DNA of 64,000 bases from an uncultured Acidobacteriota bacterium (GCA_963761805.1 CAVXIV010000018.1:145058-209057), one strand, 5' to 3'. Shown: positions 35,925 to 62,618, counted from the stretch's first letter. Translations and numbers: made by a program. Notes: generated by a model from the sequence alone, not told the origin.

Positions 35925-36505
35925 TGGAGATTCTGGCCTGGAGAAGTTGGCGACGAGCCGGAGTCCCGGGACTTGGGTCTGGAGAAGTTGACGCCGGCTC
36001 AGAGTCTGGAGACTCTGGCTTGGAGATGTTGACTCTGCGCCGGAGTCAGGAGACTTTGCGCCGGAGATCTCGACTTCGCCTCAGAGATCTCGACTTTGCG
36101 CCGGAGACGTTGACTCTGCATCAGAGTCCCGGGACTTTGCGCCGGAGAGGTTGACGCTGGCGCAGAGTCTGGAGACTCTGGCCTGGAGATCTTGACGTTA
36201 CGCCAGAGTCAGGAGACTCTGGCCTGGAGATCTCGACTTCGCCTCAGAGATCTCGACCTTGCGCCGGAGACGTTGACTTCGCCTCAGAGTCCCGAGACTT
36301 TGCATCGGAGATGTTGGCGCTGGCGCAGAGTCAGGAGACTTTGCCTCAGAGATCTTGGCTTCGCCTCAGAGATCTCGACTTTGCGCCGGAGATGTTGACT
36401 TTGCATCAGAGTCCCGAGACTCTGCATCGAAGGCGTTGACGCTGGCGCAGAGTACGGGGACTCTGGCTTGGAGGAGTTGACGACGGGTCGGAGTCCCGGG
36501 CAACG
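35925..36505. repeat. tandem array A: about 28 degenerate units of 20-21 bp, each with a short palindromic core (GAGTC-N4-GACTC, GAGATCTC) or GGAGNNGTTGAC
   Basis: Units parsed by hand, e.g. cgccggagatctcgacttcg / cctcagagatctcgactttg / cgccggagacgttgactctg / catcagagtcccgggactttg. Stops in all frames (only short ORFs in the track). Confidence 0.8.
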
Positions 36506-36595: not shown

Positions 36596-36751
36596 CTAGC
36601 ACGTCTCCAGGCCGGACCTGCCGCACTCCTGCACACAGGTGATGTTGCCGCAATTGCTGCCGCTGCCACCGATGACCATGAAACCCTGGCTGTCGTTCAG
36701 CTTCAGCAGGGTCTCCTTCGCGAGGGTGATCTTCTTGACCTGCTTCTTCAT
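36596..36751 (-). CDS. candidate RiPP/bacteriocin precursor, 51 aa, double-glycine leader (MKKQVKKITLAKETLLKLNDSQGFMVIGG / SGSNCGNITCVQECGRSGLETC)
   Basis: Below the track size cut-off; translated by hand from the minus strand. GGAG lies 5 nt upstream of the ATG. The leader resembles K-rich ...L.KETL..L....GG leaders. The core has 4 Cys and 5 Ser/Thr. Confidence 0.6.
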   Translation of the reverse strand: MKKQVKKITLAKETLLKLNDSQGFMVIGGSGSNCGNITCVQECGRSGLETC

Positions 36752-36874: not shown

Positions 36875-37335
36875 CCGACCTTTCGGCGTCAACCGGCAAC
36901 GTTCGGGGACCAACCCGGAAGGTTCGCTGACCAACCCGGAAGCTTCGCGGATCAACCCGGAAGCTTCGCGGACCAACCCGGAAGCTTCGGGGATCAACCC
37001 GGAAGCTTCACGGTTGACCTCGCAAGCTTCCCGGTTGAAGCCGGAAGGTCCGGGGATGACGCCGCAAGCTTCCCGGTTGAAGCCGCAAGCTTCCCGGTTG
37101 AAGCTGGAAGCTTCGGGGATGAACCCACAAGCTTCCCGGTTGACGCCGAAAGCTTCGCGGTTGACCTCGCAAGCTTCCCGGTTGAAGCCGGAAGGTTCGG
37201 GGATGAACCCGCAAGCTTCGCGGTTGACCTCGCAAGCTTCCCGGTTGAAGCCGGAAGCTTCGGGGATGAACCCGCAAGCTTCCCGGTTGAAGTCGGAAGG
37301 TTCGGGGATGAACCCGCAAGCTTCGCGGACGACGC
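36875..37335. repeat. tandem array B: about 22 degenerate units of exactly 21 bp around an AAGCTT core (e.g. ccggaagcttcgcggatcaac, cgcaagcttcccggttgaagc)
   Basis: Parsed by hand. The 21-bp period keeps five of six frames open, which explains the stacked track ORFs at 36833-37690. Confidence 0.8.
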
Positions 37336-37754
37336 TCGAACAGGAACCCGGCCCCGACCATCCCCAGAGCCCCAACGGGGCGCCGGCGCCATCGCCGCCG
37401 CCAGCCGGCCGCCAAGTGCCTGGCATCCACGCCGCACCCACGGACCGCGGGAGCGGCGGCTGAGCTCTCCGTCCCGCGATGCCCTCCCGGCAAGGCCCGG
37501 CCTCCCCGCCCCAGGTTGAAACCATGGGGCTACCCACGGTTGTCCCTGAAGGGACGATTAAGAGGAAGGCTATTTCAGAACGGGAGGGGAGACCCATGCC
37601 CCAACGGGGCAAAATTTGAAGAGCCCGGCGCTTCAGCGCCGGGTAGGCGATTCCCCCCGAATCCCCATCCGCCCCGGGGGCGGAACCCACCGGTCCGATA
37701 CCTGGACGCCGAAGGTGCCGCTCCTTAGAGCACCTGACAGAAGCGGTGGCAGAC

Positions 37755-37998: not shown

Positions 37999-38225
37999 TT
38001 TGTAGCCGGTCGCCGCCGCTCCTTCGGAGCTATCTATAGAGGATGGGGGACCGCGCTCTCCCTGGGGCTCGCGCCTCCAGGCTACAGGCCCGCACCTCTC
38101 CGAGGCGCATCCCGGAAGAAGAACCCTCATCGGACAGCCTTCCTGGAGACACTGTAGGGGCAGGGACGGTCCCTCCTCCCAAGGTGGGAGGCCGCGGTGC
38201 CGTACCCGACGAAAGGAGCTCTCCT

Positions 38226-38504
38226 ATGGTCCCTCTTCGACGGAGCTTCGTCCTGATCGTCTCGCTCTCCCTCCTGGGCACTCCGGCCTTTGCGGCCCCG
38301 CGAGCGCAGACCGCGCCAGAGACTTCCCTGGCCCGCGGGATCGCCTTGCGGGTCCTCCACATCCTGACTCCGATCCTGGAGAAACTCGGCGCGGGTATGG
38401 ACCCCCTGGGCGCTCCCGAACCCCAGCCCGTCGATCCCGCGTCCAGCGCCACGCCCCAGGGATCGTCGGGGGATCTCGGAGCCGGCATGGACCCGCTCGG
38501 TTGA
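38226..38504 (+). CDS. small secreted protein (92 aa) with the nonapeptide LGAGMDPLG present twice, the second copy at the exact C-terminus
   Basis: AAAGGAG lies before ATG 38226. Signal peptide MVPLRRSFVLIVSLSLLGTPAFA. The two repeat copies differ at 6 of 9 codons, all synonymous. Confidence 0.6.
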   Translation: MVPLRRSFVLIVSLSLLGTPAFAAPRAQTAPETSLARGIALRVLHILTPILEKLGAGMDPLGAPEPQPVDPASSATPQGSSGDLGAGMDPLG

Positions 38505-38514
38505 TTCGTGGCAC

Positions 38515-38555
38515 GCCGGCCTGACGTTGCTTCAGGCCGGCGTTTCTTCCCTCTT
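38515..38555 (+). terminator. intrinsic-terminator-like hairpin after the peptide gene
   Basis: GCCGGCCTGA-cgttgct-TCAGGCCGGC followed by gtttcttccctcttcgctttc. Confidence 0.45.
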
Positions 38556-38622
38556 CGCTTTCATGGAGTTGCAGACATGCGGTATAACTGGCACCTCCTG
38601 CACGATCCAAAGAGGGAGCGCC

Positions 38623-39915
38623 GTGTCCGATATCCATATCACCCGCGAGCTTCTGCGCGCCGTCGAGTCCGGCGAGTTGCCGGCCCGCGTGCTCACCGAG
38701 ATCGGCTGGCAGCACCTCCTGAGCCTTTGTCCTTCCTGCCGGGGCGAGCTGGACGCATGGCGCCGTGAAAGAGCGGCTTTCCGCGGCTCCGACACCGCCC
38801 TCAAGGTCCTGCCGTTCCTCCTGGAACGCCACGTGGAGGAGGTAGAAGAGCGGCATGAGGCGGCCCGGCGGGATCTCCGGGCTCTCCTCAAGCTTTCCCA
38901 CGAAGAACGCCTCACCAGAATCCGCCGTGCCTCCAGGCGATTCCAGGGGACCGCCCTCGCGGCGATCCTCCTCGAGGAAGCCAGGAACGCCATGCCGGAG
39001 CGGCCCCGGGATCTCTATGAGTTGGCCGAGACCGCCACCGCCGTACTGTTGCGCACTCCAGACCTGCCCGGCCTCTACGATCTCCTCGTCCGCGCTCGCG
39101 CCTACCAGGGCAACGCCCTGCGGGCCCTAGGCCAACTCGCCGAAGCAGTGGAAGCCCTGCGGGGCGCCCGTGCTCTCCTGCGCACCCAGGGCGTGACCGA
39201 TCCGCTTGTCTTCGCCGAGGTGGACTGGATCGAGGGGGCGCTGCGCAAGGACCGGCGGCAGTTCCCGGAGGCGGAGGAGCTCCTCGTGCGGGCGGCCAGC
39301 CTCTACTCGCTGGCCGGGGAGAAAGGGCAGGCCGCCGAACCCCTCCTCACCCTCGGACTCCTCTACTACGACACCGGCGAGACCCGGAAGGCCATCGAGG
39401 TCACGGAGACAGCGGCGGCCCTCATCCATCCGGAGCGGAACCCCCGCTCGTACCTGTGCGCCCGGCACAACCTGACGCTTTTCCTCATCGAGGCGGGGGA
39501 GTACGCCGTCGCGGCCGAGGCCCTCTCCGACGATGAGGATCTCTACCGGCGCTTCTCCGACCCCTGGACGCGGCTGCGCCAGATCTGGCTCCAGGGCAAG
39601 GTCGCCTTCGGCCTGGGCCACCTCGAAGAGGCCGAACGAACCTTCCTGGAAACCCGGCAGGGCTTCCTGGACCAAGGCGTCGGCTATGATGCCGCCCTCG
39701 CGTCGCTCGACCTCGCGATGGTCTACGCGAGGCAGGGAAGAACAGGTGAGCTGAAGCAACTCGTCGGAGAGCTGGCGGCGGTCTTCGGGGCCGATGATCT
39801 CCCCCGAGAGGCGGTCGCGTCGCTCGTCCTCTTTCGGCAGGCGGTTGAGGAGGAGCGGGTCACGGTGGCGGTGATTGAGGAGGTGGCCCGTCGCTTGAGG
39901 TGGGCGGTGGGATAG
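38623..39915 (+). CDS. cytoplasmic zinc-finger (H-x5-C-x2-C) plus TPR-like helical-repeat protein, about 430 aa
   Basis: GTG at 38623 after AGAGGGAG. N-terminus VSDIHITRELLRAV...HLLSLCPSCRGEL is paralogous to 46800-47333. TPR-like segments, e.g. AYQGNALRALGQLAEAVEAL, LGLLYYDTGETRKAIEV, LAMVYARQGRTGEL. Confidence 0.65.
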   Translation: MSDIHITRELLRAVESGELPARVLTEIGWQHLLSLCPSCRGELDAWRRERAAFRGSDTALKVLPFLLERHVEEVEERHEAARRDLRALLKLSHEERLTRIRRASRRFQGTALAAILLEEARNAMPERPRDLYELAETATAVLLRTPDLPGLYDLLVRARAYQGNALRALGQLAEAVEALRGARALLRTQGVTDPLVFAEVDWIEGALRKDRRQFPEAEELLVRAASLYSLAGEKGQAAEPLLTLGLLYYDTGETRKAIEVTETAAALIHPERNPRSYLCARHNLTLFLIEAGEYAVAAEALSDDEDLYRRFSDPWTRLRQIWLQGKVAFGLGHLEEAERTFLETRQGFLDQGVGYDAALASLDLAMVYARQGRTGELKQLVGELAAVFGADDLPREAVASLVLFRQAVEEERVTVAVIEEVARRLRWAVG

Positions 39916-40187
39916 GGACCGAACTGCGCCCGGATCGCTCGGCCGACCGGCGACGAAGTGCCTGGCACCCGTCCGGGCCGCCCGGGCCGGGAATCCGGAT
40001 GACTCGGCCGATGAAGGCCGGGCTTGCCCCGGAAGCCTTGGGCGGTGCGGGACCTGTTGATGGCTTAAGGGAGTATACTAGGCGTAACGGGAGCGGACCC
40101 TGGATGCTTTGAATACCAGGGTGTAGGGCGAGGCACATTTCGAGGAGGCTTATCTGCGCCACCGCCCGTAATCTTTGGAGGACTCCT

Positions 40188-41042
40188 GTGCCGGACAACG
40201 AACAGCTCGGAAGATTGCTTTCCCTTTACTCGACTCAGAAGCTTTTGCAGCACTTTCAGTCCTCGAAAAGGACTAAGGATTCGATGATTCAGGATATAGT
40301 CGAATCGGCTACGCCGGAAGAGATTATAAATTTCGCCTATACCTACCACCCCACTACTAAGCACCATCTTCACCTGTTTTCGCATAGCGCCGAGCAAATA
40401 AGTTCTTTGCCTGACGAGCCTTTGGGGTTGCTGAGTCTTGTTCGGTCAGAGCGGACGGCCACCCAAGCTCTTTGGTTTTACCTGATTGAACTTTCCTATA
40501 ACGTGGTGCTTCGCGATCCTCTGGAAATTGTCCCGGTTAAATTCCCCTGGCCGGTGCTCATTCGCTGCACTAACGACCTGCTTACGCTACGGTTCACGAT
40601 TATGGAGCCAAGTATGGCGTCTCGGTTTGACTCTGGCCGCATCGTGAAAGCAACGCGAGAGATTGATGAGTCTACAGTCCAGGCTCAGGCGCTAGGCAAT
40701 CTCGGCCTCTCCAATGTTACTGCCCTCGACCTTAACAAGGGTGTAAAAGGTCTTTGGTCAGACGACATGATCGACTCTCCTTCCGTCCAATGGAAAAAGG
40801 CGCGCGCCACGACACGGCAAGTCATGGATGGCGACTACTTGGTGAAGCGAGACGATCCCGATCTGTACCAAGAGCTTGTCGATAAGCCCTTATTCGGCGC
40901 CTTGTTTCGGTGGGTTGGCGACAGCATTAGTCTTGAGCACTTCACGGTAGAGGCAACGCAAGGGACGTTTACGTTCAGAACTTTCTCCGACCTAGATAAG
41001 GGGGCAGACTATGTGGTTCGAGAGATTCTTGAACGCAATTGA
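40188..41042 (+). CDS. hypothetical protein, 284 aa (low-GC island)
   Basis: Intact ORF, GTG start after GGAGGA. No motif recognised. Confidence 0.55.
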   Translation: MPDNEQLGRLLSLYSTQKLLQHFQSSKRTKDSMIQDIVESATPEEIINFAYTYHPTTKHHLHLFSHSAEQISSLPDEPLGLLSLVRSERTATQALWFYLIELSYNVVLRDPLEIVPVKFPWPVLIRCTNDLLTLRFTIMEPSMASRFDSGRIVKATREIDESTVQAQALGNLGLSNVTALDLNKGVKGLWSDDMIDSPSVQWKKARATTRQVMDGDYLVKRDDPDLYQELVDKPLFGALFRWVGDSISLEHFTVEATQGTFTFRTFSDLDKGADYVVREILERN

Positions 41043-41415
41043 TTCTAGCTGGGTAGGCAATGCGATCGAGCGTCGCATGAAGCTGATCGAAAGAACCGAC
41101 CCTGAGAACATCTACGTGGAGAATATACGGAGTTTTTTTAACATGCCGTTCCGGATTGCAAAGTTCTTCTGCGATCTAGCTGTCAGAGAAGGGATTTTCT
41201 TCAAGAAGATCGGATATCTGTGTCCCAAGAATAAAAACATCATACTGTATGCAGTACCCGGCGAGCCTCTTCCGGATACGGTTACCTGCCGAGTGTGCGA
41301 AGAAGGAGGCGAGGAAGAGTTCGAGTTTGACCCCAGGAAGCTTCAGACAATTGAAGTCTACAGCATTGTCGCCACGCGGTTAGATAATAACTCCGCCGCC
41401 GTTCACGAAAGCTAA
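41011..41415 (+). CDS. hypothetical protein, 134 aa, possible Cys-based metal site (C-x27-C-x2-C)
   Basis: Overlaps the upstream gene by 32 nt (alternative ATG at 41077). YLCPKNKN...TCRVCEEGGEEEFEF. Confidence 0.5.
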   Translation: MWFERFLNAIDSSWVGNAIERRMKLIERTDPENIYVENIRSFFNMPFRIAKFFCDLAVREGIFFKKIGYLCPKNKNIILYAVPGEPLPDTVTCRVCEEGGEEEFEFDPRKLQTIEVYSIVATRLDNNSAAVHES

Positions 41416-41418
41416 GCC

Positions 41419-41631
41419 GTGGCAATCACCAAAGAAAAGGCGGCAGTGTATCAGTTGATGGCCGATGTAGTCGTTAAGTTTGCGCTTGGCATGGCCGTGT
41501 GCGGGGTATTCGTGGCGATCGCGGTCAAGCTTATCCGCGATCCTAGCTGGCCAGTAGCAGCATTTGGATCGTTTTTGTCGGCCACGGTGTTTCTAGTGTT
41601 CCGTCACTATTTCCATACAAAAAAGAAGTAG
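41419..41631 (+). CDS. small membrane protein, 70 aa, two predicted TM helices
   Basis: GTG 3 nt after the upstream stop. VVVKFALGMAVCGVFVAIAVKLI and WPVAAFGSFLSATVFLVF. Confidence 0.5.
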   Translation: MAITKEKAAVYQLMADVVVKFALGMAVCGVFVAIAVKLIRDPSWPVAAFGSFLSATVFLVFRHYFHTKKK

Positions 41632-41649
41632 CCTCTCCCCCGAGAGGGA

Positions 41650-41955
41650 CCGGCTACGTAATCTTGACGTCTTCCCAAAGGCAACTAAGGCGAATACTCC
41701 TGTAGTCTTGCCTCCAGAGCTCGTTCGCCTGCACGTCCTGGACGAGACCGCCTTGACCACCTCCGTCAGCATCCGCTCGCACCGCTCACCTACCTGGACG
41801 AGCAGGCGAAGGATGGTCTTCTTTTCGGTGCCGGTGATCCGCTCAATGGCCCGGATCGAGCTACCCTCACGAAGCCGGTTCAGATAGAGCAACGCCCGGC
41901 AGGTGCATAGCTTCACCACCCTAAGCCATACTTTTATGCTCTTCTCAGGAAGCAC
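41650..41955 (-). pseudogene. N-terminal helix-turn-helix fragment of an IS-type transposase (remnant)
   Basis: LREGSSIRAIERITGTEKKTILRLLVQVGERCERML resembles the L.EG.S.R...R..GV...TV.RLL...G..C HTH of several IS transposases. No catalytic domain follows. Family not assignable by eye. Confidence 0.4.
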
Positions 41956-41973
41956 GCCGAACAGGGGGTAGAT

Positions 41974-44496
41974 TCAAGGACCAACGTCGGATGCCTTCCG
42001 GAAGGTGCCCACTCGCCTAGGTGCCCCAATCTCTCCGGTAAGGCGAGCGACGCGCCGACGTAGTTCGTCGAGGGAGCCAAGAACGAAGACCTCTTTGGTT
42101 TCAGTAACGTGTAGCATTCCACTACTCGCGCGTGCCAGATCATTAAGCGCGCGTTCGACATCAGGAGTATCTACGCTCTCAAAGCCTTCACAACGGCTAA
42201 TCTCGGCGGCTATGAGGTAGACGTTGCGGGGGGTATTGCGGAGGCGCGGCTCCAGGTCGGCCAAGGCGCGCACTACTCCCTGGTATAGATCGACGTTGTC
42301 AAAGCTGGGATCGGAGAGAAGCCGATCTACCTTGGTGACGACATCGGGAGGAGCAAAGGCGCTAACTACAATCTCTTGTAGGCTCCGGGCATTGATCTGG
42401 CGGCGTTCAGCGGTTTCCACCACGCGAGCAAGTTGTTCGATTGTCCAGCAGCTAACATACTGTTGTCGGGCGCGCTCGCTCACCTCGCTGTGTGGGTCCT
42501 CGGCACCAGGGTACGCAGGAGCTACAAGCAAGCAGCCATTTGCGCCGTTCTTTTCATAGTGTGACCGGAGTCCTGCAAAGTCGAGATGGCCAAGTGATGG
42601 AACATCACTACTGCTCTTCGCTTCCAACGTAAATGTATAGTTCTCAACGCCATGGATCAGATATCGGGCGATGCCATCAGGCGTTCCAGAGCCCCCAATG
42701 TGGCGTGAGCTGAAGCCGAGTGCACGTAATGCGCCTACAAGAGCGATCTCTAAGTCATTTGCGCTGCTCGATGCTTCACGAAGCGACGCTGCAAGAGCCT
42801 GTAGAGAATAAGCTTCGTCGAGTGCAAGACTTCTAAGAAGGGCGTCGCGTTTCTCAAGTAAGTCATTGACGATCTCTGCTTCAACGCCAGCAGCGTGAAG
42901 GTATACCTCCAGCAGTGCCTCTGCAACCACCAACGCTTCAAGGAGTCTCTTGCTGTCGGGTTTTTCTGCGAACTCCCGTACAAGCTCATGATCTTCGTTT
43001 ACAATAAACGTTGCTGTACGGGCATTGAGGCGAGCCAGCGGTTCAAACTCGCCCGCAGGAGAGTACTTAAAGGTGTAGCTACGCTCCTTTCTCTCTGTAG
43101 AGTACAGTTGCTCAACGAGAGCCTGCAGTTCTTCAAGGCCGCTGACGGGCTCGAGTAATCGCCAACTTGATAAAGCTGCCCCTTCCGTTGTCTCTGTGGG
43201 AAAGTCCGCAGCACCCGCAACCAGAACGTCTGCGAGAGGGCGTTCAACGAGTTCGGTGCTAACATAGTCCCGTATACCTTCTTTCTTGCGCTTGTTCTCT
43301 GCTTCGTCGGCTTTTACCCGCTCTTCATACCGATCACGTGCTTGGTTGAAGAGCTGGATAAGTAGCTCCCGGAGCTTTTTTTTGACCTGTGACTGCTCGA
43401 CATCATCGCGTGCTGCGGTCACATACTTATTAAGGTCCGGTGCCTCAACAATCGCAGCAAAGCGATACCATGTTGTAAACGACAGCGGTCGTGCACCGAA
43501 GAGAGGGTCGGTTTCGTTAATGAGGCGATTGTGGACACGGACAAAGAATCCGTGGCTTCGCCCAAGATCCTCACTTTTGCCACCCTCGGCATATAGTGAT
43601 CGTTTGGTTACATAGACCTCACCGATAACGCCTGAAGGAAAGCTGGGAGAGGAAAGGCCGCCCGGAACCTTTGTCCATGTTTCACCTGTGACGGGGCTTA
43701 GGTCCGTTATTCGCTCATCGTCAAGTTCGTCGACCGTGAAGTGTACAATTTTTTCATATCTCTCTTTCGAAGAAGTTATGCGATCTCCATTCAGGTGTAA
43801 AGCGAAGTCGCTTGCGAGAGGCATTGCCGTCTCAAGGACCCACCTCAGGCGCCCAGTGGCGAGTTGATGCGCCTTTTCCTTTAGGTCTTCTAGTACGACG
43901 AGCGTCCAAGTGGGCGTTGCCTCTAGATCCTGTGGATTCGGCTTGGTTGCAAGCACAGCTCTTGCAGCTTGGAAAGACCGGCTGTTCTCCAGTAAAGATG
44001 TACTATCGAGCCTCCGCAGCGTGAGTGCGACAGGCTGAGCGGTGCCAGTTGCATCAGTGGCTGCTGCGAAGGCTTCAAAGTTGATAGATACTGCGTGGAT
44101 GCCCTGAGATGTCCGACTTAGGTATGTGGCATGCCTAGCAACGGCGTAACTGGCAAGTTTGCCTATACCAAACTTGCCAATTTGTTTTCGTCGTGAGGAA
44201 ATGGCTGGCTTATTGCTAACCCCAATATGCCAGAGGTTCTCAAGTTCTTCGAGCGTCATACCTTTGCCATTATCAAAAACCACTATGAGAGGTCGCTCGC
44301 CATCCAAATCAACATGCACAGAACACACACTAGCCTCAGCGTCCCAACTATTAACTACTAGTTCCTCTATTGCCTTTACCGGTGTGGCGTACAGCTGCTC
44401 ACTGAAAAGCTTTATTACTTCATAAGAGATCTGAACATTTACAGTTTTGGTCTCGATGCCAATGGCTTCTACATCATCAGCGAGTCGGAGTGCCAT
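41974..44496 (-). CDS. GHKL (MORC/paraMORC-type HATPase_c_3) ATPase fused to a C-terminal Mrr-like PD-(D/E)xK nuclease domain, 840 aa
   Basis: N-terminal ELVVNSWDAEAS...FDNGKGMT...GKFGIGKLA (Bergerat fold N, G1, G2 boxes). C-terminal LVGALRALGF...GGSGTPDGIARY...FTLEAKSS (PD...EAK). Confidence 0.75.
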   Translation of the reverse strand: MALRLADDVEAIGIETKTVNVQISYEVIKLFSEQLYATPVKAIEELVVNSWDAEASVCSVHVDLDGERPLIVVFDNGKGMTLEELENLWHIGVSNKPAISSRRKQIGKFGIGKLASYAVARHATYLSRTSQGIHAVSINFEAFAAATDATGTAQPVALTLRRLDSTSLLENSRSFQAARAVLATKPNPQDLEATPTWTLVVLEDLKEKAHQLATGRLRWVLETAMPLASDFALHLNGDRITSSKERYEKIVHFTVDELDDERITDLSPVTGETWTKVPGGLSSPSFPSGVIGEVYVTKRSLYAEGGKSEDLGRSHGFFVRVHNRLINETDPLFGARPLSFTTWYRFAAIVEAPDLNKYVTAARDDVEQSQVKKKLRELLIQLFNQARDRYEERVKADEAENKRKKEGIRDYVSTELVERPLADVLVAGAADFPTETTEGAALSSWRLLEPVSGLEELQALVEQLYSTERKERSYTFKYSPAGEFEPLARLNARTATFIVNEDHELVREFAEKPDSKRLLEALVVAEALLEVYLHAAGVEAEIVNDLLEKRDALLRSLALDEAYSLQALAASLREASSSANDLEIALVGALRALGFSSRHIGGSGTPDGIARYLIHGVENYTFTLEAKSSSDVPSLGHLDFAGLRSHYEKNGANGCLLVAPAYPGAEDPHSEVSERARQQYVSCWTIEQLARVVETAERRQINARSLQEIVVSAFAPPDVVTKVDRLLSDPSFDNVDLYQGVVRALADLEPRLRNTPRNVYLIAAEISRCEGFESVDTPDVERALNDLARASSGMLHVTETKEVFVLGSLDELRRRVARLTGEIGAPRRVGTFRKASDVGP

Positions 44497-44498
44497 AA

Positions 44499-46112
44499 TT
44501 ATGACTCCTTCTCTGGGACCTGGCAGAACTGTTCTTCTCCGCTTGCTGCCGTAGATCTTCGAAGAACAAGAACATACTCTGTCAAGATGTCTGCTCCATT
44601 ATGACGTGTGTAGGACATATAGCGATTCTTTACGGGATAGCTGAGGAGGTTCTCGAGATGAAACCAGTCGCCAGCCAGTTCCTCAAATAGAGTAGAGGTA
44701 GGTATCTCCGCACTATTCCAGCTACTATGGCCAACAACGAACACAGCAGGGGATCCATGCTTGAGTAATTGGGAAAGCCCTTCAAAGACGCGGGTCATTG
44801 CTAGTATATAATGCCGGAACGAGTCCGCACGCTTTGCAGAGACCTCGCGGATACGACTTTCCCATTCCTTTGCAAGCGTATTTCTGAGGACCGCGCTTTT
44901 AAGTAGAGAGTCGCGTTGCGGTACTTGTGGCCGACCGATATATTTGTCCAATAATTGCAATCGTTGCTGATGATTGGTTGTTAGTCCTAGCCAAAACATC
45001 TCAAGCTTGTGGCGACGATAGTAATCCACGGCGCCGTGATAGGGTGGTGATGTAATGACAGCGTCAACAACCCGTGAAATGTGATCTCCGAGGTGAACTG
45101 CATCACCGAGCATTACCCGAGTAGAAACGGACTTGACAGTTGCCTTGTAGAGTCCTTCTGCTGCATCGAGCGCCTTTGTCATTGCTTTGGAGAATAAGGC
45201 GAAAGGGTTAATGAGACGGCCTTGTTCTTCGAGGCGTTTCATATGTGCCGTTACTTCGAGGCCAGATACCGGCACAGGATCAGCATTGGACGAGTTGCGG
45301 ATAATCGACGCGAAAACAGCATTGAAAAACTTGCCATGGGTGGCTGGGATTGGAGCTCTGGCTATAGCACGACGAATATTCGCAAGGTCCACGACAACGT
45401 AACGTCGGAACCAGTGATTAAGGTTGGGGATCGCGGGAATAAAGTCGGTTAACTCACTTTGCTCGCTCTCAAATTCACTATCAGATAGATCTTCGAACAT
45501 CATTTTTTTGTATTCAGATTCTGGACGAGCATATAGCTGAGCTGATTCGATTACAGTCTGCGCAGAGGTGCGAAGTCGCGCAGGTTGGTAACGGTGAGTC
45601 TTCGCGGATGCCACAGCAGTAGCAACCGGGTCAACGTCGAGGCCTATGGAGTGGCGCTGCATACGGAGGGCCTCGACCAGCAAAGTTCCGCTGCCACAGA
45701 ATGGATCTAGAACAACCTGATTGGGTTGTGTATATCGCTCCAAGAGGGTCTGTACGATTGGCGGATGAAACTTCGCAGGATAGCGGAAGAGGTAATGCGT
45801 GAGTCGGTCGAAACGCTGATTGTCGGTGGCGAGTGGTTCTATCCCTATGCGGGACAGGCCTAGTGCGTTGCTTTTGACAAGAGGAGACGGGACCATGGCT
45901 GCGGAGTGTACACAGTTTGATTCGGGCAAAGATAGCCTCAGCCGAGCTCCATATACTAGATACTGACCCCTGTCAAGGCTGTCGACAAGCTTCCTCCAGC
46001 CCTGACGACCTCGCGAGATGTTTCTGCTGGCCAGAAGCGCAGGCTGTGGCGGGGGTAGGATCTCTCCCAGAGAACCTCTGGCAAAGTGCCCCCCACTGTC
46101 GCCGTGCGGCAA
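44499..46112 (-). CDS. N6-adenine/N4-cytosine DNA methyltransferase (motif I before motif IV with about 200 aa between them)
   Basis: DPFCGSGT (motif I) and ITSPPYHGAVDYY (motif IV). 2 nt upstream of the ATPase-nuclease gene. The true start may be ATG 45896, because codons 1-72 read through a higher-GC gene remnant. Confidence 0.8.
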   Translation of the reverse strand: MPHGDSGGHFARGSLGEILPPPQPALLASRNISRGRQGWRKLVDSLDRGQYLVYGARLRLSLPESNCVHSAAMVPSPLVKSNALGLSRIGIEPLATDNQRFDRLTHYLFRYPAKFHPPIVQTLLERYTQPNQVVLDPFCGSGTLLVEALRMQRHSIGLDVDPVATAVASAKTHRYQPARLRTSAQTVIESAQLYARPESEYKKMMFEDLSDSEFESEQSELTDFIPAIPNLNHWFRRYVVVDLANIRRAIARAPIPATHGKFFNAVFASIIRNSSNADPVPVSGLEVTAHMKRLEEQGRLINPFALFSKAMTKALDAAEGLYKATVKSVSTRVMLGDAVHLGDHISRVVDAVITSPPYHGAVDYYRRHKLEMFWLGLTTNHQQRLQLLDKYIGRPQVPQRDSLLKSAVLRNTLAKEWESRIREVSAKRADSFRHYILAMTRVFEGLSQLLKHGSPAVFVVGHSSWNSAEIPTSTLFEELAGDWFHLENLLSYPVKNRYMSYTRHNGADILTEYVLVLRRSTAASGEEQFCQVPEKES

Positions 46113-46119
46113 CGGTCGT

Positions 46120-46320
46120 ATCCTTTCGCGCTCCCTGCCACCGACATAAGCGCGGACGGAGACGTGTGATGAGGCTTCGAAGCCGGCGGCGGCGCTCGAA
46201 ATCGAGAAGCGACCAGATGGCCAGGACAGCCCCAGGCGTCAAGGTGTTCCAGAGGCGGTCCAGGCCGGCGGGAGTGTAGAGGCGGTTGTTGGCGCGCAGG
46301 GTGTACGCCCCGGGACCGTC
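46120..46320 (-). pseudogene. possible remnant of a spermidine-synthase-like methyltransferase C-terminus
   Basis: Minus-strand reading DGPGAYTLRANNRLYTPAGLDRLWNTLTPGAVLAIWS... resembles the ...LY....L......L.PGGVLA.WS tail of that family. No N-terminal part is present. Confidence 0.3.
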
Positions 46321-46405
46321 TGCATCGAGGCACTCTTAGGGACAGGAGCGCCCCCTCCCTCCCATGGTGGGGCGAGAGCGGAAGCAGCTCCGGAAAGGTT
46401 CCTCT

Positions 46406-46681
46406 ATGCGCAGCGTTTCCTTCCGTGCCCTCACCTTCGTTCTCACTGTCCTGCTCCTCGCCTCGCCTGTCCTTGCCGCTGGCGCCCGGCTCCCTCGGGC
46501 AGAGGAGGCGCCGGGGGTTTTCGCCGAGCTTTGGCAGGTGGTCCGGCAACTCGTGCCGACTCTGATGAAGGGCCGCGCCGGCCAGGATCCCAACGGAAGT
46601 CCGCTTCCTGAACCGACCGGTTCAGGGGCGACCAGCGAGCCTGACACCGAGGGCCGGGCTGGTCAGGACCCCAACGGATAG
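46406..46681 (+). CDS. small secreted protein (91 aa), paralogue of 38226-38504, with GRAGQDPNG present twice, the second copy at the exact C-terminus
   Basis: ATG 46406 after GGAAAGG. Signal peptide MRSVSFRALTFVLTVLLLASPVLA. The repeat copies differ at 4 of 9 codons, all synonymous. Confidence 0.6.
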   Translation: MRSVSFRALTFVLTVLLLASPVLAAGARLPRAEEAPGVFAELWQVVRQLVPTLMKGRAGQDPNGSPLPEPTGSGATSEPDTEGRAGQDPNG

Positions 46682-46799: not shown

Positions 46800-47333
46800 A
46801 TGGCGGAGTGGCACATCCCGGAGGACTTGTTCGAGCGGTTTCTCCGAGTGGAGACGTCGAGTGAGGAGGCGCGGAAGCTCGTTCGCCATCTCTTGAGCGG
46901 GTGTCCGGATTGTCCGGAATTGGCGTACCGGGTGACCGCGGGAAGCGGCCTCTTCCCCGCCCTGGAAGGGACCGGCCAACCCGGCTGGGAGCAGGTCCAT
47001 GAAGAGGTCTTCACGCGGGCGTTTGCCTGGGAGAGCCAGGAAGAGGCCCGGCTGGCGGTGGAGAAGCTCCGTGGATGGGGTCAGTGGGCCGAACTGGCGC
47101 CGATGAGCCCTCTGTCGCGCCTGGAGAGGGTGGAGTCGGACCCGCGTTTCCATACCTTCGGCCTCTATGAGCGGCTCCTCGAAGCGGCCCGCTGGTACAG
47201 CCGCATCGAGCCGAGGGAAGCCGTGGATGTGGTCCGCCTCGCGATTGTCGTGTCCGAGCGGCTGGACCCGGCCGCCCTGGGCGAGCAGCGGGTGGCCGAC
47301 CTCCAGGCCGCGGCATGGGCGGAGCTCGGTTAA
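46800..47333 (+). CDS. zinc-finger/TPR-like protein, paralogue of 38623-39915, truncated after 177 aa
   Basis: MAEWHIPEDLFERFL...RHLLSGCPDCPEL aligns with the N-terminus of the 38623 gene. The 118-nt spacer to the peptide gene is identical in length. The ORF ends ...AAAWAELG where the paralogue continues for about 250 more residues. Confidence 0.6.
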   Translation: MAEWHIPEDLFERFLRVETSSEEARKLVRHLLSGCPDCPELAYRVTAGSGLFPALEGTGQPGWEQVHEEVFTRAFAWESQEEARLAVEKLRGWGQWAELAPMSPLSRLERVESDPRFHTFGLYERLLEAARWYSRIEPREAVDVVRLAIVVSERLDPAALGEQRVADLQAAAWAELG

Positions 47334-61051: not shown

Positions 61052-61185
61052 GGTGATTCTTTCCTTTCTCGTGAGGTGGCGAGCAGCGCGCCGGTGAGTC
61101 CGCCGGATCGCTCATTCCACGTGTACCGAGAAAGTGCCCGACCCGATCGATCTATCTCAGGCAAAATCGAACGAAATCGATTTTT

Positions 61186-62025
61186 CTACGGCCGCTCGGT
61201 CACCCGGAACGGATAGGCCCCGATCGCGGCGCCTTGGCCCTCCCCCTGGATCGTCAGCTCGTAGACGCCGGGGGAGAGCATGCTGGAGGGAAGGAGGATG
61301 GTGAGGGTGTCCCTTTCGTCCGCCTCGAGGCCTGAGGATCGCCAGATCTCCTGGCCCTTGCCGTCGCGCAGGGAGGCGCGGAAGGCGGGGAAGTCCACGG
61401 TGGCCAGCTCCATCGTGAGGAGCACAGGCTGGCCCGCCGCGGGCAGGGGGATGCGGTTCACGGGCTCGCGGCCGGCCTCGTCGCCGCCGCGGACGGCGGC
61501 GAGGAGGAAGACGGGGACGTTCACCTGGGGGCGGTTCTCCGCGGTTGTCTCTTCCGACTGGGCCTGGCGCGCCTTGGCCAGCTCGTCCTCCAGGCGCCGG
61601 CGGTCGCCGGCGCCGGATTCCCGGGCGGCTTTCAGCTCGGCTTCCAGGCGTGCGATGCGGGGATCTTCGGCGGCCGCCGGAGCCGCCGTCCGGGCCGCGG
61701 CCAACTGGCGTTCGAGGCTCCGGTTGCGGGCCAGGACGAGCCCGAGGGGGAGCGCCACCAGGAGCAGGAGAACGGCGGCCCATGCGATCCGGCGTTTCCA
61801 GGACACGGCCGCGAGGATGCCGAGGCTCGCCCTGGCCGTCTCTGCGGCGGCGACGTCGCGCATCCCTTCCCGGAAGTCGTTCGCCATCTCCAAATGCGCG
61901 AGGCACGTTTCACAGGCAAAGAAATGGGCTTCGAACGCGTCGCGCTCGCTCTCGCTCAGTCGCTCTTTGAGATAGGCCTCGACGAGGCCGTGCTCTTCGG
62001 CGTAGGCGTGATCCACGGCGGTCAT
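61186..62025 (-). CDS. anti-sigma factor (zf-HC2) with one TM segment and a periplasmic domain
   Basis: AHFFACETCLAHLE (H-x3-C-x2-C). TM WAAVLLLLVALPLGLVLA. The ATG overlaps the sigma-factor stop. Confidence 0.75.
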   Translation of the reverse strand: MTAVDHAYAEEHGLVEAYLKERLSESERDAFEAHFFACETCLAHLEMANDFREGMRDVAAAETARASLGILAAVSWKRRIAWAAVLLLLVALPLGLVLARNRSLERQLAAARTAAPAAAEDPRIARLEAELKAARESGAGDRRRLEDELAKARQAQSEETTAENRPQVNVPVFLLAAVRGGDEAGREPVNRIPLPAAGQPVLLTMELATVDFPAFRASLRDGKGQEIWRSSGLEADERDTLTILLPSSMLSPGVYELTIQGEGQGAAIGAYPFRVTERP

Positions 62026-62618
62026 GGGTTCCCCCGCCACTTCTCGAACAGCTCTTTATACCGCTGCCGGGCGCGGAACAGCACGCGGTTGAAGTGGAGA
62101 TCGGAGAGCTCGAGGTCGCGGCAGATCACGTCTTTGTCCTGGTCCGCGATGTAGTACCGCGAGAGGATCTCGCGGTCGCGGTCGTTTTTCAGCTCGGCCA
62201 GCACCTGGCGGACCAGCGCCGACCGTTCCCTGGCCAGGAGCTTCTGGAGCTGGCCCGGGGCCGGATCGGGCGCGGTCTCGGTGGCTTCGGGATCTCCTTC
62301 CCATTTCTGACGCCGGCCGCCGCGGCGGACGGAACCGAGGAAGAGGTTCCGGGCCAGGCTGCTCACGAATCCCGGCAGCCGTTCCGCTTCCCGCAACTCG
62401 CCCCGCCGGACCTTCTCGATCACCAGCCGGAAGGTCTCCTGGTACAGGTCCTCCGCCGCGGCTTCGTCCCGGGTCAGCCGCCCCAGCAGGAACTTCAGCG
62501 CGCGGCTGAACCGTTGGACCAGCTCGGTCTCCGCCTCCGGTTCGCCGGAGAGGATGCGCCGGACCAGGTCCGCCATCGGGTCGGCGCCCGGCCGCGGATG
62601 CCCGGCGGGCTCGTTCAA
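62022..62618 (-). CDS. ECF (group 4) sigma-70 family RNA polymerase sigma factor
   Basis: Region 2 DLYQETFRLVIEKV...PGFVSSLARN and region 4 REILSRYYIADQDKDVICRDLELSDLHFNRVLFRARQRY. Confidence 0.85.
   Translation of the reverse strand: MNEPAGHPRPGADPMADLVRRILSGEPEAETELVQRFSRALKFLLGRLTRDEAAAEDLYQETFRLVIEKVRRGELREAERLPGFVSSLARNLFLGSVRRGGRRQKWEGDPEATETAPDPAPGQLQKLLARERSALVRQVLAELKNDRDREILSRYYIADQDKDVICRDLELSDLHFNRVLFRARQRYKELFEKWRGNP

Follow-up and report, generated by a model that had tools for sequence, protein, structure and literature searches.

A conserved gene pair of Acidobacteriota, encoding a small DPxG-repeat protein and a soluble zinc anti-sigma-like TPR protein, suggests a possible peptide-dependent sigma switch

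Why a small, apparently exported protein should carry the same nonapeptide twice, and what it has to do with the TPR protein encoded next to it, are the questions raised by two adjacent genes of an uncultured Acidobacteriota bacterium. Both lie on the forward strand, as do the parts of both cassettes described below, of a 64,000-nucleotide stretch of DNA (the window), and a first-pass annotation had proposed them as a peptide-signalling pair reminiscent of RRNPP quorum sensing. Members of the Thermoanaerobaculia/Acidobacteriota are an abundant soil group that has hardly been cultured, and, to our knowledge, cytoplasmic TPR receptors for re-imported peptides (RRNPP) have been reported from Firmicutes and their phages alone. 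No paper combining RRNPP and Acidobacteria came up in a full-text search of the literature, and literature searches yielded no description of this gene pair. ECF sigma/anti-sigma pairs, which also enter the argument, rank among the principal means of signal transduction in bacteria, and the inputs of their soluble anti-sigma factors are, as far as we know, mostly unknown. Soluble variants of anti-sigma factors have probably been under-detected (Casas-Pastor et al. 2021, PMC7826278).

The first gene (38226–38504, ATG start) encodes a DPxG-repeat mini-protein of 92 residues, a putative exported precursor, and is preceded by the Shine-Dalgarno sequence AAAGGAG (38212–38218), 7 nt 5' of the ATG. 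By inspection, the N-terminus of the protein is of the canonical Sec type (MVPLRR, a hydrophobic core, and AFA followed by Ala), with a signal peptide predicted for residues 1–23 (38226–38294) and cleavage after AFA. An amphipathic helix comprises residues 33–53 (SLARGIALRVLHILTPILEK, 38322–38384) and corresponds to residues 440–461 of an AF2 model of the two proteins fused together, where its pLDDT is about 50; it is the counterpart of a helix conserved in the family with the pattern xxLWxAVxxL, the Trp of which is absent from the window copy. The helix is followed by the first copy of the motif LGAGMDPLG (residues 54–62, 38385–38411), a Pro/Ser/Gly-rich spacer of 21 residues (38412–38474; 23 residues between the heptapeptides), and the second copy (residues 84–92, 38475–38501), which is preceded by Asp and forms the C-terminus. 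The product is thus confirmed as first described, with a predicted signal peptide, one helix, and a duplicated motif whose second copy is C-terminal. The two copies are encoded by CTC GGC GCG GGT ATG GAC CCC CTG GGC and CTC GGA GCC GGC ATG GAC CCG CTC GGT, respectively, so that six of the nine codons differ, all of them synonymously, as had been claimed. A DNA repeat search does not see the two copies, which is expected of a repeat that is kept at the peptide level alone.

The small protein, whose close homologues are P0001–P0006, matches no Pfam or NCBIfam family. Its wider family is defined by the motif [D/E]-L-G-x-x-[M/I/L]-D-P-x-G, present in one to three copies per protein: at least two copies are found in 54 of 70 small proteins and three copies in 11 of the 70, and the duplicated C-terminal motif is therefore kept in homologues. 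In 57 of the 70 members the protein ends exactly with the last DPxG, and D or E occupies motif position −6 in 59. A hydrophobic 12-mer (Kyte-Doolittle mean of at least 2.0) precedes the first motif in 63 members, the trimmed sequences display n-h-c regions and AxA sites, and the Trp-helix pattern is present in 61. The spacers between motifs are rich in G/P/S/T throughout the family, with a median of 13 residues and a range of 2–76. Gene callers often leave the small ORF uncalled.

The motif varies between lineages, whereas its copies within one protein are alike and their DNA has diverged; motif identity amounts to 7.4/9 within a protein versus 5.3/9 between proteins. Examples include VSPSFDPDG, duplicated with six synonymous differences, and LRPWWDPNG, duplicated with four. 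Family-wide, the comparison of copies within proteins yields 246 synonymous versus 121 non-synonymous codon differences, which bears out the initial proposal that selection acts on the peptide and not on the DNA. The faithful copying of lineage-specific variants fits recognition by a single co-evolving partner. A sub-clade of small proteins of about 40 residues (loci L060, L064, L068, L070, and L092), in which the Trp-helix stands right at the start, has no separate canonical signal peptide, suggesting that Sec export may be dispensable for function. A relationship with the RTX/beta-roll nonapeptide GGxGxDxUx was also considered, since LGAGMDPLG superficially fits xGxGxDxUx, and it was ruled out: position −2 of the motif is G in just 48 of 135 copies, and the one to three copies, joined by linkers of 2–76 residues, do not form tandem arrays.

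The linkage between the two genes proved to be conserved. Among 87 distinct loci, which represent the surroundings of homologues of the large protein in Thermoanaerobaculia/Acidobacteriota, 75 hold a small DPxG ORF just 5' of the TPR gene, and in these 75 loci the small signal-peptide ORF ends a median of 121 nt before the large gene (IQR 115–129). The spacing in the window is exactly 118 nt, as annotated, measured to the GTG at 38623. The reverse lookup, starting from the small proteins, found a gene for a TPR protein of 442–453 residues 130–155 nt 3' in four of five cases. An orphan small ORF is found at L116, and five loci that are more distant have the small gene just 3' of the TPR gene. 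Three loci (L001, L009, and L048) have no small ORF and hold damaged TPR genes, and the small ORF and an intact TPR gene tend to be lost jointly. The small ORF and the zinc anti-sigma-like/TPR gene are, consequently, a conserved two-gene module. All 27 matches in species-representative genomes belong to Thermoanaerobaculia or other Acidobacteriota. The cassettes occur in two to three copies per genome, with different motif variants, in variable neighbourhoods rich in mobile elements or defence genes. Ten locus neighbourhoods share no gene beyond the pair, and hence no conserved maturase, protease, or transporter; no oligopeptide permease is linked to it. A prolyl peptidase was considered as a further part of the module and discarded, as an S9 peptidase gene follows the pair in three loci (L114, L115, and L117) and in no other locus, the window included.

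Each gene of the pair has a regulatory region of its own. The leader of the small gene (38150–38225) holds a conserved box, CACTGTA (38150–38156), a hairpin with a C-rich and a G-rich arm (CCTCCCA at 38175–38181 and TGGGAGG at 38185–38191), and the Shine-Dalgarno sequence. In 31 leaders, a box GCAC(T/C)NT(A/T) lies about 75–80 nt 5' of the ATG and is followed by a GC hairpin, whose arms vary by lineage (CCCTCC/GGAGGG versus CCCGCC/GGCGGG). A long GC hairpin is common to the leaders in single-sequence folds; RNAalifold on MAFFT alignments gave an absent or inconsistent consensus structure. The mean MFE z-score of the leaders is −2.0, and the two copies in the window score −0.4 and +0.7, both not significant. 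No conserved −35 element was found in the leaders, and a sigma-54 promoter reading of the GCAC box was dismissed by inspection, as no TTGC stands at the distance required. Rfam holds no family matching the leader or the intergenic region.

Downstream of the small ORF, a GC-rich hairpin with a 12-bp stem and a 7-nt loop (38513–38524/38532–38543) is followed by a pyrimidine-rich tail, and the first 75 nt 3' of the stop codon fold with −27.3 kcal/mol. The terminator-like hairpin that had been noticed here stands as far as its 12-bp stem is concerned, but its T-run is weak and a consensus terminator scan does not call it. Strongly negative MFE values were obtained for all 30 intergenic regions folded (28 loci and both cassettes of the window), most of which have a GC hairpin just 3' of the stop codon, many with a T-run after it.

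The second gene (38623–39915, GTG start) encodes a protein of 430 residues with zinc anti-sigma-like and TPR domains. The protein is soluble as predicted from the start, since none of its 19-mers exceeds a Kyte-Doolittle mean of 1.16, which leaves no candidate for a transmembrane segment. Its family comprises 2,803 clusters (50% identity, E ≤ 1e-30). The N-terminal domain (residues 1–60, 38623–38802) had been credited with an H-x5-C-x2-C motif, which needs correction: the residues are H31-x4-C36-x2-C39, and an upstream histidine, H5, is invariant too. The whole pattern H5-x25-H31-x4-C36-x2-C39, containing the four candidate zinc ligands, is invariant in alignments of 26 and 18 diverse sequences. 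The best PDB match of the N-terminal profile is ChrR (2q1z_B), at a marginal E = 0.005 and 20.5 bits; the alignment places H5, H31, C36, and C39 on the first His of the ChrR residue 5–6 pair, the His of THL, and the Cys pair of CDEC. We take the zinc ligands of ChrR to be H6, H31, C35, and C38, which correspond to the aligned candidates. The NCBIfam model anti_sig_RseA matches with E = 3e-4 and 20.9 bits against a cutoff of 165, Pfam zf-HC2 does not match the domain, and no HTH family matches the 430-residue protein. The AF2 model of this domain is of low confidence (pLDDT 48–77). At the level of its sequence, the N-terminal domain resembles a ChrR-type zinc anti-sigma domain.

This resemblance is joined by gene order in distant relatives. 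In L104 and L107, ECF sigma genes (Sigma70_r2 and r4) overlap the start of distant homologues of the large gene, with the stop codon of the sigma gene and the start codon of the ZnF-TPR gene overlapping, and these sigma-linked relatives share the H-x4-C spacing. L107 contains, in addition, a gene for a small secreted DPLG protein. Searches by tblastn with the sigma proteins of L104 and L107 detected no linked sigma gene in the window or the main-clade loci, and the sole ECF-like sigma factor of the window is encoded 22 kb away (62022–62618). The output of the large protein is likely to be sigma-factor sequestration rather than the DNA binding of RRNPP regulators.

The remainder of the protein forms a TPR superhelix of 16 helices (approximately residues 110–430, 38950–39912; mean AF2 pLDDT 86.9), and the TPR repeats recognized at the outset are supported by a TPR_2 match of 33.7 bits against a cutoff of 27. 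Foldseek searches against the PDB returned LGN/Pins TPR domains first and then Rap proteins, with target TM values of about 0.55–0.69; the Rap matches (RapJ 4gyo, RapI 4i1a, phi3T Rap 8rst, and pLS20 Rap 6t46) span approximately 0.55–0.66. Solved structures of these closest folds (LGN, Rap-Phr) hold peptides in their groove, and C-terminal peptides are classic TPR ligands, as in the case of Hop-EEVD, PEX5-PTS1, Phr, and PapR. The suggested analogy with RRNPP systems holds as regards the TPR model, which resembles Rap receptors, but not as regards DNA binding, for want of an HTH, or sequence: a profile search of PDB sequences gave RapJ with E = 0.066 and 5dbk ("Transcriptional regulator/TPR domain protein") with E = 0.052, neither significant, and no RRNPP-specific family is found among the Pfam/NCBIfam matches. 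As the TPR fold is generic, TPR repeats and a Rap-like fold are a weak criterion for an RRNPP receptor.

Contact between the two proteins was approached in two ways. In the fused AF2 model of the 430-residue protein and the mature small protein (window fusion, with unpaired TPR homologues and four small proteins as input), the peptide has a pLDDT of 25–57, so that no docking is predicted from this single chain with its shallow peptide alignment. In a mutual information analysis, the top signal connects peptide position +2 with TPR residues W202/I203/A206. On a neighbour-joining tree this signal comes down to approximately a single change, which separates a hydrophobic clade (L/A/W/G) from a polar one (N/D), and L032 contradicts the proposed pattern of size swaps between position +2 and the TPR residues. 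Peptide–TPR co-variation was accordingly rejected as evidence, because it follows phylogeny and L032 is off the pattern.

The window holds a second cassette, which had been invoked in favour of cognate specificity between peptide and receptor. Its small ORF of 91 residues (46406–46681) does exist and carries a different motif, GRAGQDPNG, at 46571–46597 and 46652–46678, with four codons differing between the copies, all synonymously. However, its partner is truncated, which weakens that support: the paralogous anti-sigma/TPR gene is cut off at 177 residues (46800–47333), keeping HLLSGCPDC and having lost the TPR domain. The ORF spans only about the first 170–190 residues of the family, tblastn with five family members matched only their first 167–194 residues to it, and no further TPR remnant of this cassette was detected within the window.

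We tentatively propose, at somewhat less than an even chance, that a soluble anti-sigma factor has the DPxG peptide as its ligand and that an ECF-type sigma factor is controlled in this way. The first gene would provide a Sec-exported mini-protein that, once its signal peptide is removed, would consist of the amphipathic helix and one to three lineage-specific decapeptides, parted by disordered Pro/Ser/Gly linkers and ending in a last copy with a free C-terminus. The second gene, presumably read from its own promoter region after the terminator-like hairpin, would yield a soluble cytoplasmic protein combining a ChrR-type zinc anti-sigma domain with a Rap/LGN-like TPR superhelix. The peptide would occupy the TPR groove, either as a whole tail or once it has been processed and has returned to the cytoplasm, and would thereby decide whether the anti-sigma domain retains an ECF-type sigma factor or lets it go. 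The gene for that sigma factor would lie elsewhere in this lineage, whereas deep-branching relatives have it immediately 5' of the large gene. In function, the scheme would amount to a Rap/Phr-like peptide switch with an anti-sigma output. The analysis shows the gene pair, its motif, selection on the peptide, the kinds of domain present, and the sigma linkage in relatives; within this scheme, we infer peptide–TPR binding, processing, import, the sigma partner, and any role in cell–cell signalling; since the small and the large protein are predicted in different compartments, either import or contact before export must be assumed. Also speaking against the proposal are the lack of a linked sigma gene in the window and the main-clade loci, the H-x4-C spacing and marginal ChrR match of the N-terminal domain, the intact small ORF beside a truncated partner in the second cassette, and the orphan small ORF of L116. 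A full peptide-pheromone system, in which exported DPxG peptides re-enter, bind the TPR domain of the zinc anti-sigma factor, and free the ECF sigma factor, is a more demanding proposal that we consider rather unlikely; the diversified paralogous cassettes would then be separate pherotypes, possibly on mobile elements.

Other roles for the small protein have to be weighed against a ligand. It might never touch the TPR domain and be an envelope product or accessory of the same circuit, either a periplasmic effector or a target gene of the controlled sigma factor, with the TPR domain sensing something else. The predicted separation of the two proteins by compartment, the separate regulatory regions (the box and leader hairpin 5' of the small ORF and the terminator-like hairpin 3' of it), the position of the small gene variously 5' or 3' of the TPR gene, and the failure of the fused model to dock the peptide are all consistent with such a role, and ECF operons often include envelope accessory genes. 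What it leaves unexplained is why the copies should be identical within a protein and diverse between lineages and paralogues, and why the motif should stand at the extreme C-terminus; a small disordered tail without a fold would also be an unusual effector. We give this explanation a minor share of the probability. An encounter before export is proposed by a further model, in which the TPR domain would capture the precursor by its DPxG tail while it is still in the cytoplasm and release of the sigma factor would report the capacity or rate of Sec export, by analogy with TPR class II type III secretion chaperones (IpgC/MxiE) and with FlgM export. Re-import would be unneeded, both partners would meet in one compartment with no importer invoked, there are known cases of TPR proteins that bind a secretion substrate and afterwards take part in transcription, and the sub-clade of about 40 residues, with no separate canonical signal peptide, would find a place. 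Nevertheless, Sec substrates normally leave quickly, a housekeeping role is hard to reconcile with the several paralogous cassettes of one genome and their diversified motifs, and no docking was predicted, so we regard this secretion sensor as improbable.

Least probable by far is that the small ORF encodes a multi-core RiPP or bacteriocin precursor, with the TPR protein as its biosynthetic scaffold or immunity factor. Identical core-like repeats with linkers do recall multi-core precursors, the TPR protein has a weak NCBIfam match to HaaT, a TPR protein of cyclophane RiPPs (E = 5.7e-5, far below cutoff), and a lanthipeptide-leader-like ORF lies 1.5 kb upstream; yet no maturase, protease, or transporter is conserved beside the pair, a Sec signal peptide takes the place of a RiPP leader, and the large protein begins with an anti-sigma-like domain.

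Of the known systems, those of the RRNPP type in Firmicutes come closest to the pair, above all Rap-Phr (others being NprR-NprX, PlcR-PapR, and the phage system AimR-AimP). In both cases, a small gene for a putative or known pro-peptide with a signal peptide stands next to the TPR gene, the active part would be the C-terminal end of the pro-peptide, and the TPR protein is soluble and cytoplasmic, a superhelix of about 370–440 residues. Like Rap proteins, the large protein has an N-terminal domain that does not bind DNA and would bind another protein, and the two genes form a stand-alone cassette, of which a genome contains several diversified versions, frequently within mobile or variable regions. 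Unlike Rap proteins, that domain is zinc anti-sigma-like, with neither an HTH nor the Rap three-helix bundle; furthermore, the host belongs to a diderm Acidobacteriota lineage, and the peptide motif, with its invariant D-P-x-G core, is repeated one to three times.

Among zinc-binding anti-sigma factors (the ZAS family), which include RsrA and RslA, the closest is the soluble ChrR of Rhodobacter sphaeroides (2Q1Z, 2Z2S). Both proteins are soluble and end in a C-terminal sensor domain, a cupin in ChrR and TPR repeats here, and distant homologues of the 430-residue protein are, like ChrR, encoded directly after ECF sigma genes. However, the H-x4-C-x2-C motif has one residue more than the H-x3-C-x2-C of the canonical ZAS pattern, H/C-x(23-26)-H-x3-C-x2-C, and in the clade of the window the secreted-peptide gene stands where the sigma gene would. 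Lantibiotic-sensing pairs are known from microbisporicin (MibX/MibW) and planosporicin (PspX/PspW). The proposed switch would be analogous to them in that the cell's own ribosomal peptide feeds back on an anti-sigma factor and releases an ECF sigma factor, whereas MibW and PspW are membrane anti-sigma factors thought to sense the peptide outside the cell, and the peptides concerned are heavily modified and encoded within large biosynthetic clusters. The pair resembles Hop TPR1/2A-EEVD-COOH and PEX5-SKL-COOH in its short acidic motif, which stands at the very C-terminus, and LGN/Pins proteins, the nearest solved folds, hold extended peptides in their inner groove. Nonetheless, these systems serve as chaperones or in targeting in eukaryotes and lack an anti-sigma output, and homology is limited to the TPR fold.

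The module joins a gene-encoded, diversifying peptide with a putative soluble anti-sigma factor bearing a peptide-receptor fold. A peptide ligand would offer the first handle on cell–cell or self-signalling in Acidobacteriota, and a compact, orthogonal peptide-to-sigma switch testable with synthetic peptides; were the pheromone system also true, it would constitute a new class of quorum sensing, with an RRNPP-like input and a sigma/anti-sigma output. Should the peptide have another role, the DPxG mini-proteins would nonetheless constitute a conserved family that has yet to be named.

As to the surroundings of the pair in the window, the neighbouring genes for an OmpR-type regulator, an LTXXQ/Spy-like protein, and a Band 7 protein are present as annotated. 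A role in defence was considered and set aside, as PADLOC matches neither protein of the pair. The lanthipeptide-leader-like ORF found 1.5 kb 5' of the pair is separate from it, and the low-GC island adjoining the cassette is a separate restriction-modification-like pair.

Cassette 1 opens with a small ORF on the forward strand (38226-38504), which starts with ATG behind an AAAGGAG and encodes MVPLRRSFVLIVSLSLLGTPAFAAPRAQTAPETSLARGIALRVLHILTPILEKLGAGMDPLGAPEPQPVDPASSATPQGSSGDLGAGMDPLG. As the first-pass annotation had proposed, this secreted-type protein holds two identical copies of LGAGMDPLG (nt 38385-38411 and 38475-38501), and a recount agrees that six of the nine codons are unlike and that every change is synonymous; a DNA-level repeat search did not pick up this repeat. 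The terminator-like hairpin described behind this ORF stands only in part: a 12-bp GC hairpin is present 3' of the stop codon (38513-38543, forward strand), and the 75 nt after the stop fold with an energy of -27.3 kcal/mol, but the T-run is weak and a consensus terminator scan did not call it. Exactly 118 nt past the stop, also on the forward strand, a large ORF starts with GTG at 38623. Its 430-aa product was correctly recognised as a TPR protein without transmembrane segments, since its Pfam matches are TPR families only (TPR_2, 33.7 bits versus a cutoff of 27) and no hydrophobic segment is present, the highest Kyte-Doolittle mean over 19 residues being 1.16. The genes named as its context, coding for an OmpR-type regulator, an LTXXQ/Spy-like protein, and a Band 7 protein, were also found.

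The pair drawn from this single stretch recurs in many others. The small protein alone retrieves six close relatives, and the 430-aa protein leads to a large family with members of about 440 aa, comprising 2,803 clusters at 50% identity (profile search, E <= 1e-30). Given source names and all 27 of the 27 loci from species-representative genomes point to Thermoanaerobaculia or other Acidobacteriota, with two or three cassettes per genome that bear unlike motif variants. Loci around large-protein homologues (27 from genomes and 80 from metagenomes, cited here by L numbers) were fetched and their upstream DNA was read. Among the 87 distinct loci with enough upstream sequence, 75 hold a same-strand small ORF that ends a median of 121 nt upstream of the large gene (IQR 115-129); its product opens with a hydrophobic stretch of signal type and contains D-P-x-G one or more times. 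In five of the 12 exceptions (L091, L097, L098, L100, and L109) the small gene lies just 3' of the large gene; in L107 it is found farther upstream, beyond a sigma gene; L085 is truncated where its contig ends; the large genes of L001, L009, and L048 are damaged; and no small gene was seen in L067 and L104. In the reverse direction, a profile built from 31 diverse small proteins retrieved 54 database proteins, and four of the five that were looked up on longer contigs have a gene for a 442-453-aa TPR protein 130-155 nt downstream, the small ORF of L116 being an orphan. Small DPxG ORFs are present in the DNA of L028 (9500-9900) and L111 (9500-9900) but missed by public gene calls, so this family is under-annotated.

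Among 70 small proteins, a strongly hydrophobic 12-mer (signal peptide) is present in 63, and in the trimmed sequences the n-regions are rich in Arg and the cleavage sites are of the AxA type. Of the 70 proteins, 61 have an amphipathic helix, in most cases with a conserved Trp (xxLWxAVxxL). The duplicated C-terminal motif of the window is kept in its homologues: 16 of the 70 proteins have a single copy and 54 have two or more, 11 of these having three, and the last motif forms the exact C-terminus in 57. Its consensus is [D/E](-6) [L](-5) G(-4) [P/S/A](-3) [G/E/S/T](-2) [M/I/L](-1) D P [N/D/L/W](+2) G, and the linkers between copies are rich in Gly, Pro, Ser, and Thr and span 2-76 aa. A positional bias was observed, in which the internal copy is often DPDG and the C-terminal one DPNG (about 15 proteins versus about 5 reversed); Asn-Gly is prone to deamidation, and the Asp-Pro bond is acid-labile. 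In one clade (L046, L049, L052, L054, and L058), Cys residues flank the motif copies, as in CESGSIMDPNGC and CDRGSIMDPNGC, which points to loops closed by disulfides around the DPNG turn after arrival of the protein in the periplasm.

Selection on the peptide, claimed at first from one protein, extends to the whole family: 684 within-protein codon comparisons comprise 246 synonymous versus 121 non-synonymous differences. Residue identity between motif copies reaches 7.4/9 within one protein versus 5.3/9 overall, and 4.4/6 versus 2.3/6 at the variable positions. Duplication is faithful despite silent divergence, as in VSPSFDPDG (twice in one protein, 6 silent differences), LRPWWDPNG (twice in one protein, 4), and LGPGMDPLG (twice, 5-7), and GSIMDPNG is found three times in one protein. 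The peptide is under selection, the copies in each protein being held to one lineage-specific sequence.

An AlphaFold2 model of the large protein, built with 26 homologues, is all-helical and confident (mean pLDDT 86.9), with the first 60 residues at low confidence. Against the PDB, Foldseek ranks TPR domains of LGN/Pins at the top, followed by Rap receptors (RapJ-PhrC 4gyo, RapI, phi3T Rap, pLS20 Rap, RapF, and RapH) and MalT domain III, with TM scores of about 0.55-0.69 on the target. The LGN/Pins domains, the nearest solved folds, hold extended peptides in their inner groove. Sequence searches, on the other hand, return generic TPR proteins only, with RapJ at E = 0.066.

The N-terminal metal motif, earlier given as H-x5-C-x2-C, is in fact H31-x4-C36-x2-C39. 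Both a set of 26 family members and a more diverse set of 18 keep H5, H31, C36, and C39 without exception. In the PDB, a profile covering residues 1-90 matches ChrR, an anti-sigma factor, best (2q1z_B and 2z2s_B, E = 0.005); in the alignment the four residues fall on ChrR's first His of the pair at positions 5-6, the His of THL, and the two Cys of CDEC. The zinc ligands of ChrR are H6, H31, C35, and C38. NCBIfam gives a sub-threshold match of this domain to the mycobacterial anti-sigma factor RseA, and Pfam zf-HC2 does not match the large protein. Independent support from gene order comes from distant homologues with 32-36% identity, in L104 and L107, which are preceded by ECF-type sigma genes (Sigma70_r2 and r4) that end on or overlap their start codon, the classical sigma/anti-sigma arrangement. 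Because the invariant residues align to ChrR and ECF sigma genes lie beside these homologues, the former "zinc finger" is better read as a putative zinc anti-sigma domain of the ChrR type whose motif is longer by one residue. In the metagenome locus L107 (2300-8900), three ECF sigma genes stand in an array with three genes of the zinc-domain/TPR family and one small secreted DPLG protein (5041-5349) with a single IRIDPLG motif; this locus may represent an ancestral three-part arrangement. No sigma gene of this kind was found in the window or in any locus of the main clade. An unrelated ECF-like sigma gene (62022-62618, reverse strand; Sigma70_r2, E = 9e-9) lies at a distance of 22 kb from cassette 1; behind it, on that strand too, comes an unassigned ORF of 249 aa (61157-61906), possibly its own anti-sigma factor.

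We class the module as a putative combination of a peptide/TPR receptor with a zinc anti-sigma factor, both of which are known kinds. Like Rap-Phr, it would unite three elements: an N-terminal domain that binds another protein, a TPR domain that senses a peptide, and, encoded next to them, an exported pro-peptide whose signal is C-terminal; unlike Rap-Phr, its output would be a sigma factor. The RRNPP analogy of the first-pass annotation holds for the layout and the Rap-like TPR fold, but not for the type of effector domain or for detectable sequence homology. Its N-terminal domain resembles those of ZAS anti-sigma factors, of which it is a marginal member on sequence statistics alone, and, unlike them, the clade of the window lacks an adjacent sigma gene. 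According to the paper that reclassified ECF sigma factors (PMC7826278), soluble anti-sigma variants are probably under-detected. Pfam and NCBIfam hold no family for the small protein and no specific family for the large one, and literature searches returned no description of the gene pair.

The second cassette also proved real, with a 91-aa paralogous small ORF (46406-46681) that carries a different peptide, GRAGQDPNG, twice with four synonymous differences. The match of its neighbour (46800-47333) to the family is confined to the N-terminal 170-190 residues, and the TPR part is absent from the window. This intact small ORF beside a truncated partner weighs against strict interdependence of the pair, as does the orphan of L116.

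Four points are established: the pair is conserved, its repeated C-terminal motif is constrained at the peptide level, one domain resembles anti-sigma domains, and the TPR domain resembles peptide receptors. In the most parsimonious model, proposed tentatively, the DPxG peptide would bind the TPR domain as its ligand, and this binding would govern whether the zinc domain sequesters an ECF sigma factor. The simplest cause of the matching between copies would be one co-evolving partner that recognises them all. A single-chain fusion AlphaFold2 model gives the peptide part a pLDDT of 25-57, and co-variation between peptide and TPR domain is confounded by phylogeny. That the small protein is an accessory envelope product without direct contact is the less likely reading. 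Under the ligand model, an exported peptide could reach a cytoplasmic receptor through re-import, the route of RRNPP systems, or the two could touch before export takes place, in the manner of TPR secretion chaperones. In L060, L064, L068, L070, and L092, small proteins of only about 40 aa open with the Trp-helix (MLRTLWGSLQALF...) and have one C-terminal motif and no separate canonical signal peptide, which shows that such a predicted signal is not universal in the family and makes pre-export and non-Sec routes possible; a secretion-coupled model for the pair as a whole appears improbable. Comparison of the neighbourhoods revealed nothing in common beyond the pair, and a RiPP or bacteriocin nature of the small proteins seems very remote. 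Transposases, toxin-antitoxin, or restriction-like genes are often nearby. In a single sub-clade (L114, 5477-6387; L115, 5392-6312; L117, 5684-6303), the TPR gene is followed after 0.5-0.9 kb by a gene for a secreted S9-family (DPP IV/prolyl oligopeptidase-like) peptidase; this gene was not found in the window, and elsewhere gave one weak match, in L042 (29% identity).

Folding of 30 intergenic regions (28 loci and both window cassettes) gave strongly negative minimum free energies in all. Most hold a GC hairpin directly 3' of the small ORF, many with a T-run after it, and many a TATA(A/T)T-like element before the large gene; because of this hairpin and this element, transcription of both genes is probably separate or attenuated. 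Upstream of the small ORFs, the leaders of the window (38150-38225 and 46329-46405) and of about 30 loci bear a box and a GC-rich hairpin. The box, GCAC(T/C)NT(A/T), is common to 31 leaders at about 75-80 nt 5' of the ATG, and the arms of the long hairpin after it co-vary between lineages (CCCTCC/GGAGGG versus CCCGCC/GGCGGG). Compared with shuffled controls, the leaders fold on average 2 SD lower in energy, a shift that the two leaders of the window do not show. No consensus leader structure emerged from RNAalifold on sequence alignments, and Rfam has no family in the leader or intergenic region. Box and hairpin may constitute a cis-regulatory RNA or a promoter element.

Between both cassettes lies a low-GC island (40100-46200; 48-55% GC versus about 68% in the flanks), where neither a tRNA gene nor a flanking direct repeat was found. 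It holds three ORFs without assignment (40188-41631, forward strand) and, on the reverse strand, an 840-aa GHKL-ATPase protein with restriction-enzyme-like matches (41974-44496) and a type II-like DNA methyltransferase (44499-46112). On the other side of cassette 1, a 51-aa ORF (MKKQVKKITLAKETLLKLNDSQGFMVIGGSGSNCGNITCVQECGRSGLETC; 36596-36751, reverse strand) matches the NCBIfam class I lanthipeptide leader NF038153 (26.3 bits versus a cutoff of 22) and, weakly, TIGR04149, an rSAM-modified RiPP family; its core is rich in Cys, Ser, and Thr, and no LanB or LanC match occurs among the scanned neighbouring ORFs. Just upstream of cassette 1 are two non-coding-looking tandem arrays with spurious long ORFs on both strands, one at 35938-36453 (period about 41 nt, also 20 and 163; about 12 copies) and the other at 36891-37330 (period 21 nt, about 20 copies, consensus TTCGCGGACCAACCCGGAAGC). 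The Rfam sRNA Acido-Lenti-1 is matched below threshold at 37597-37643 on the reverse strand (29.5 bits, E = 0.002; gathering score, 37), which would fit an Acidobacteriota origin.
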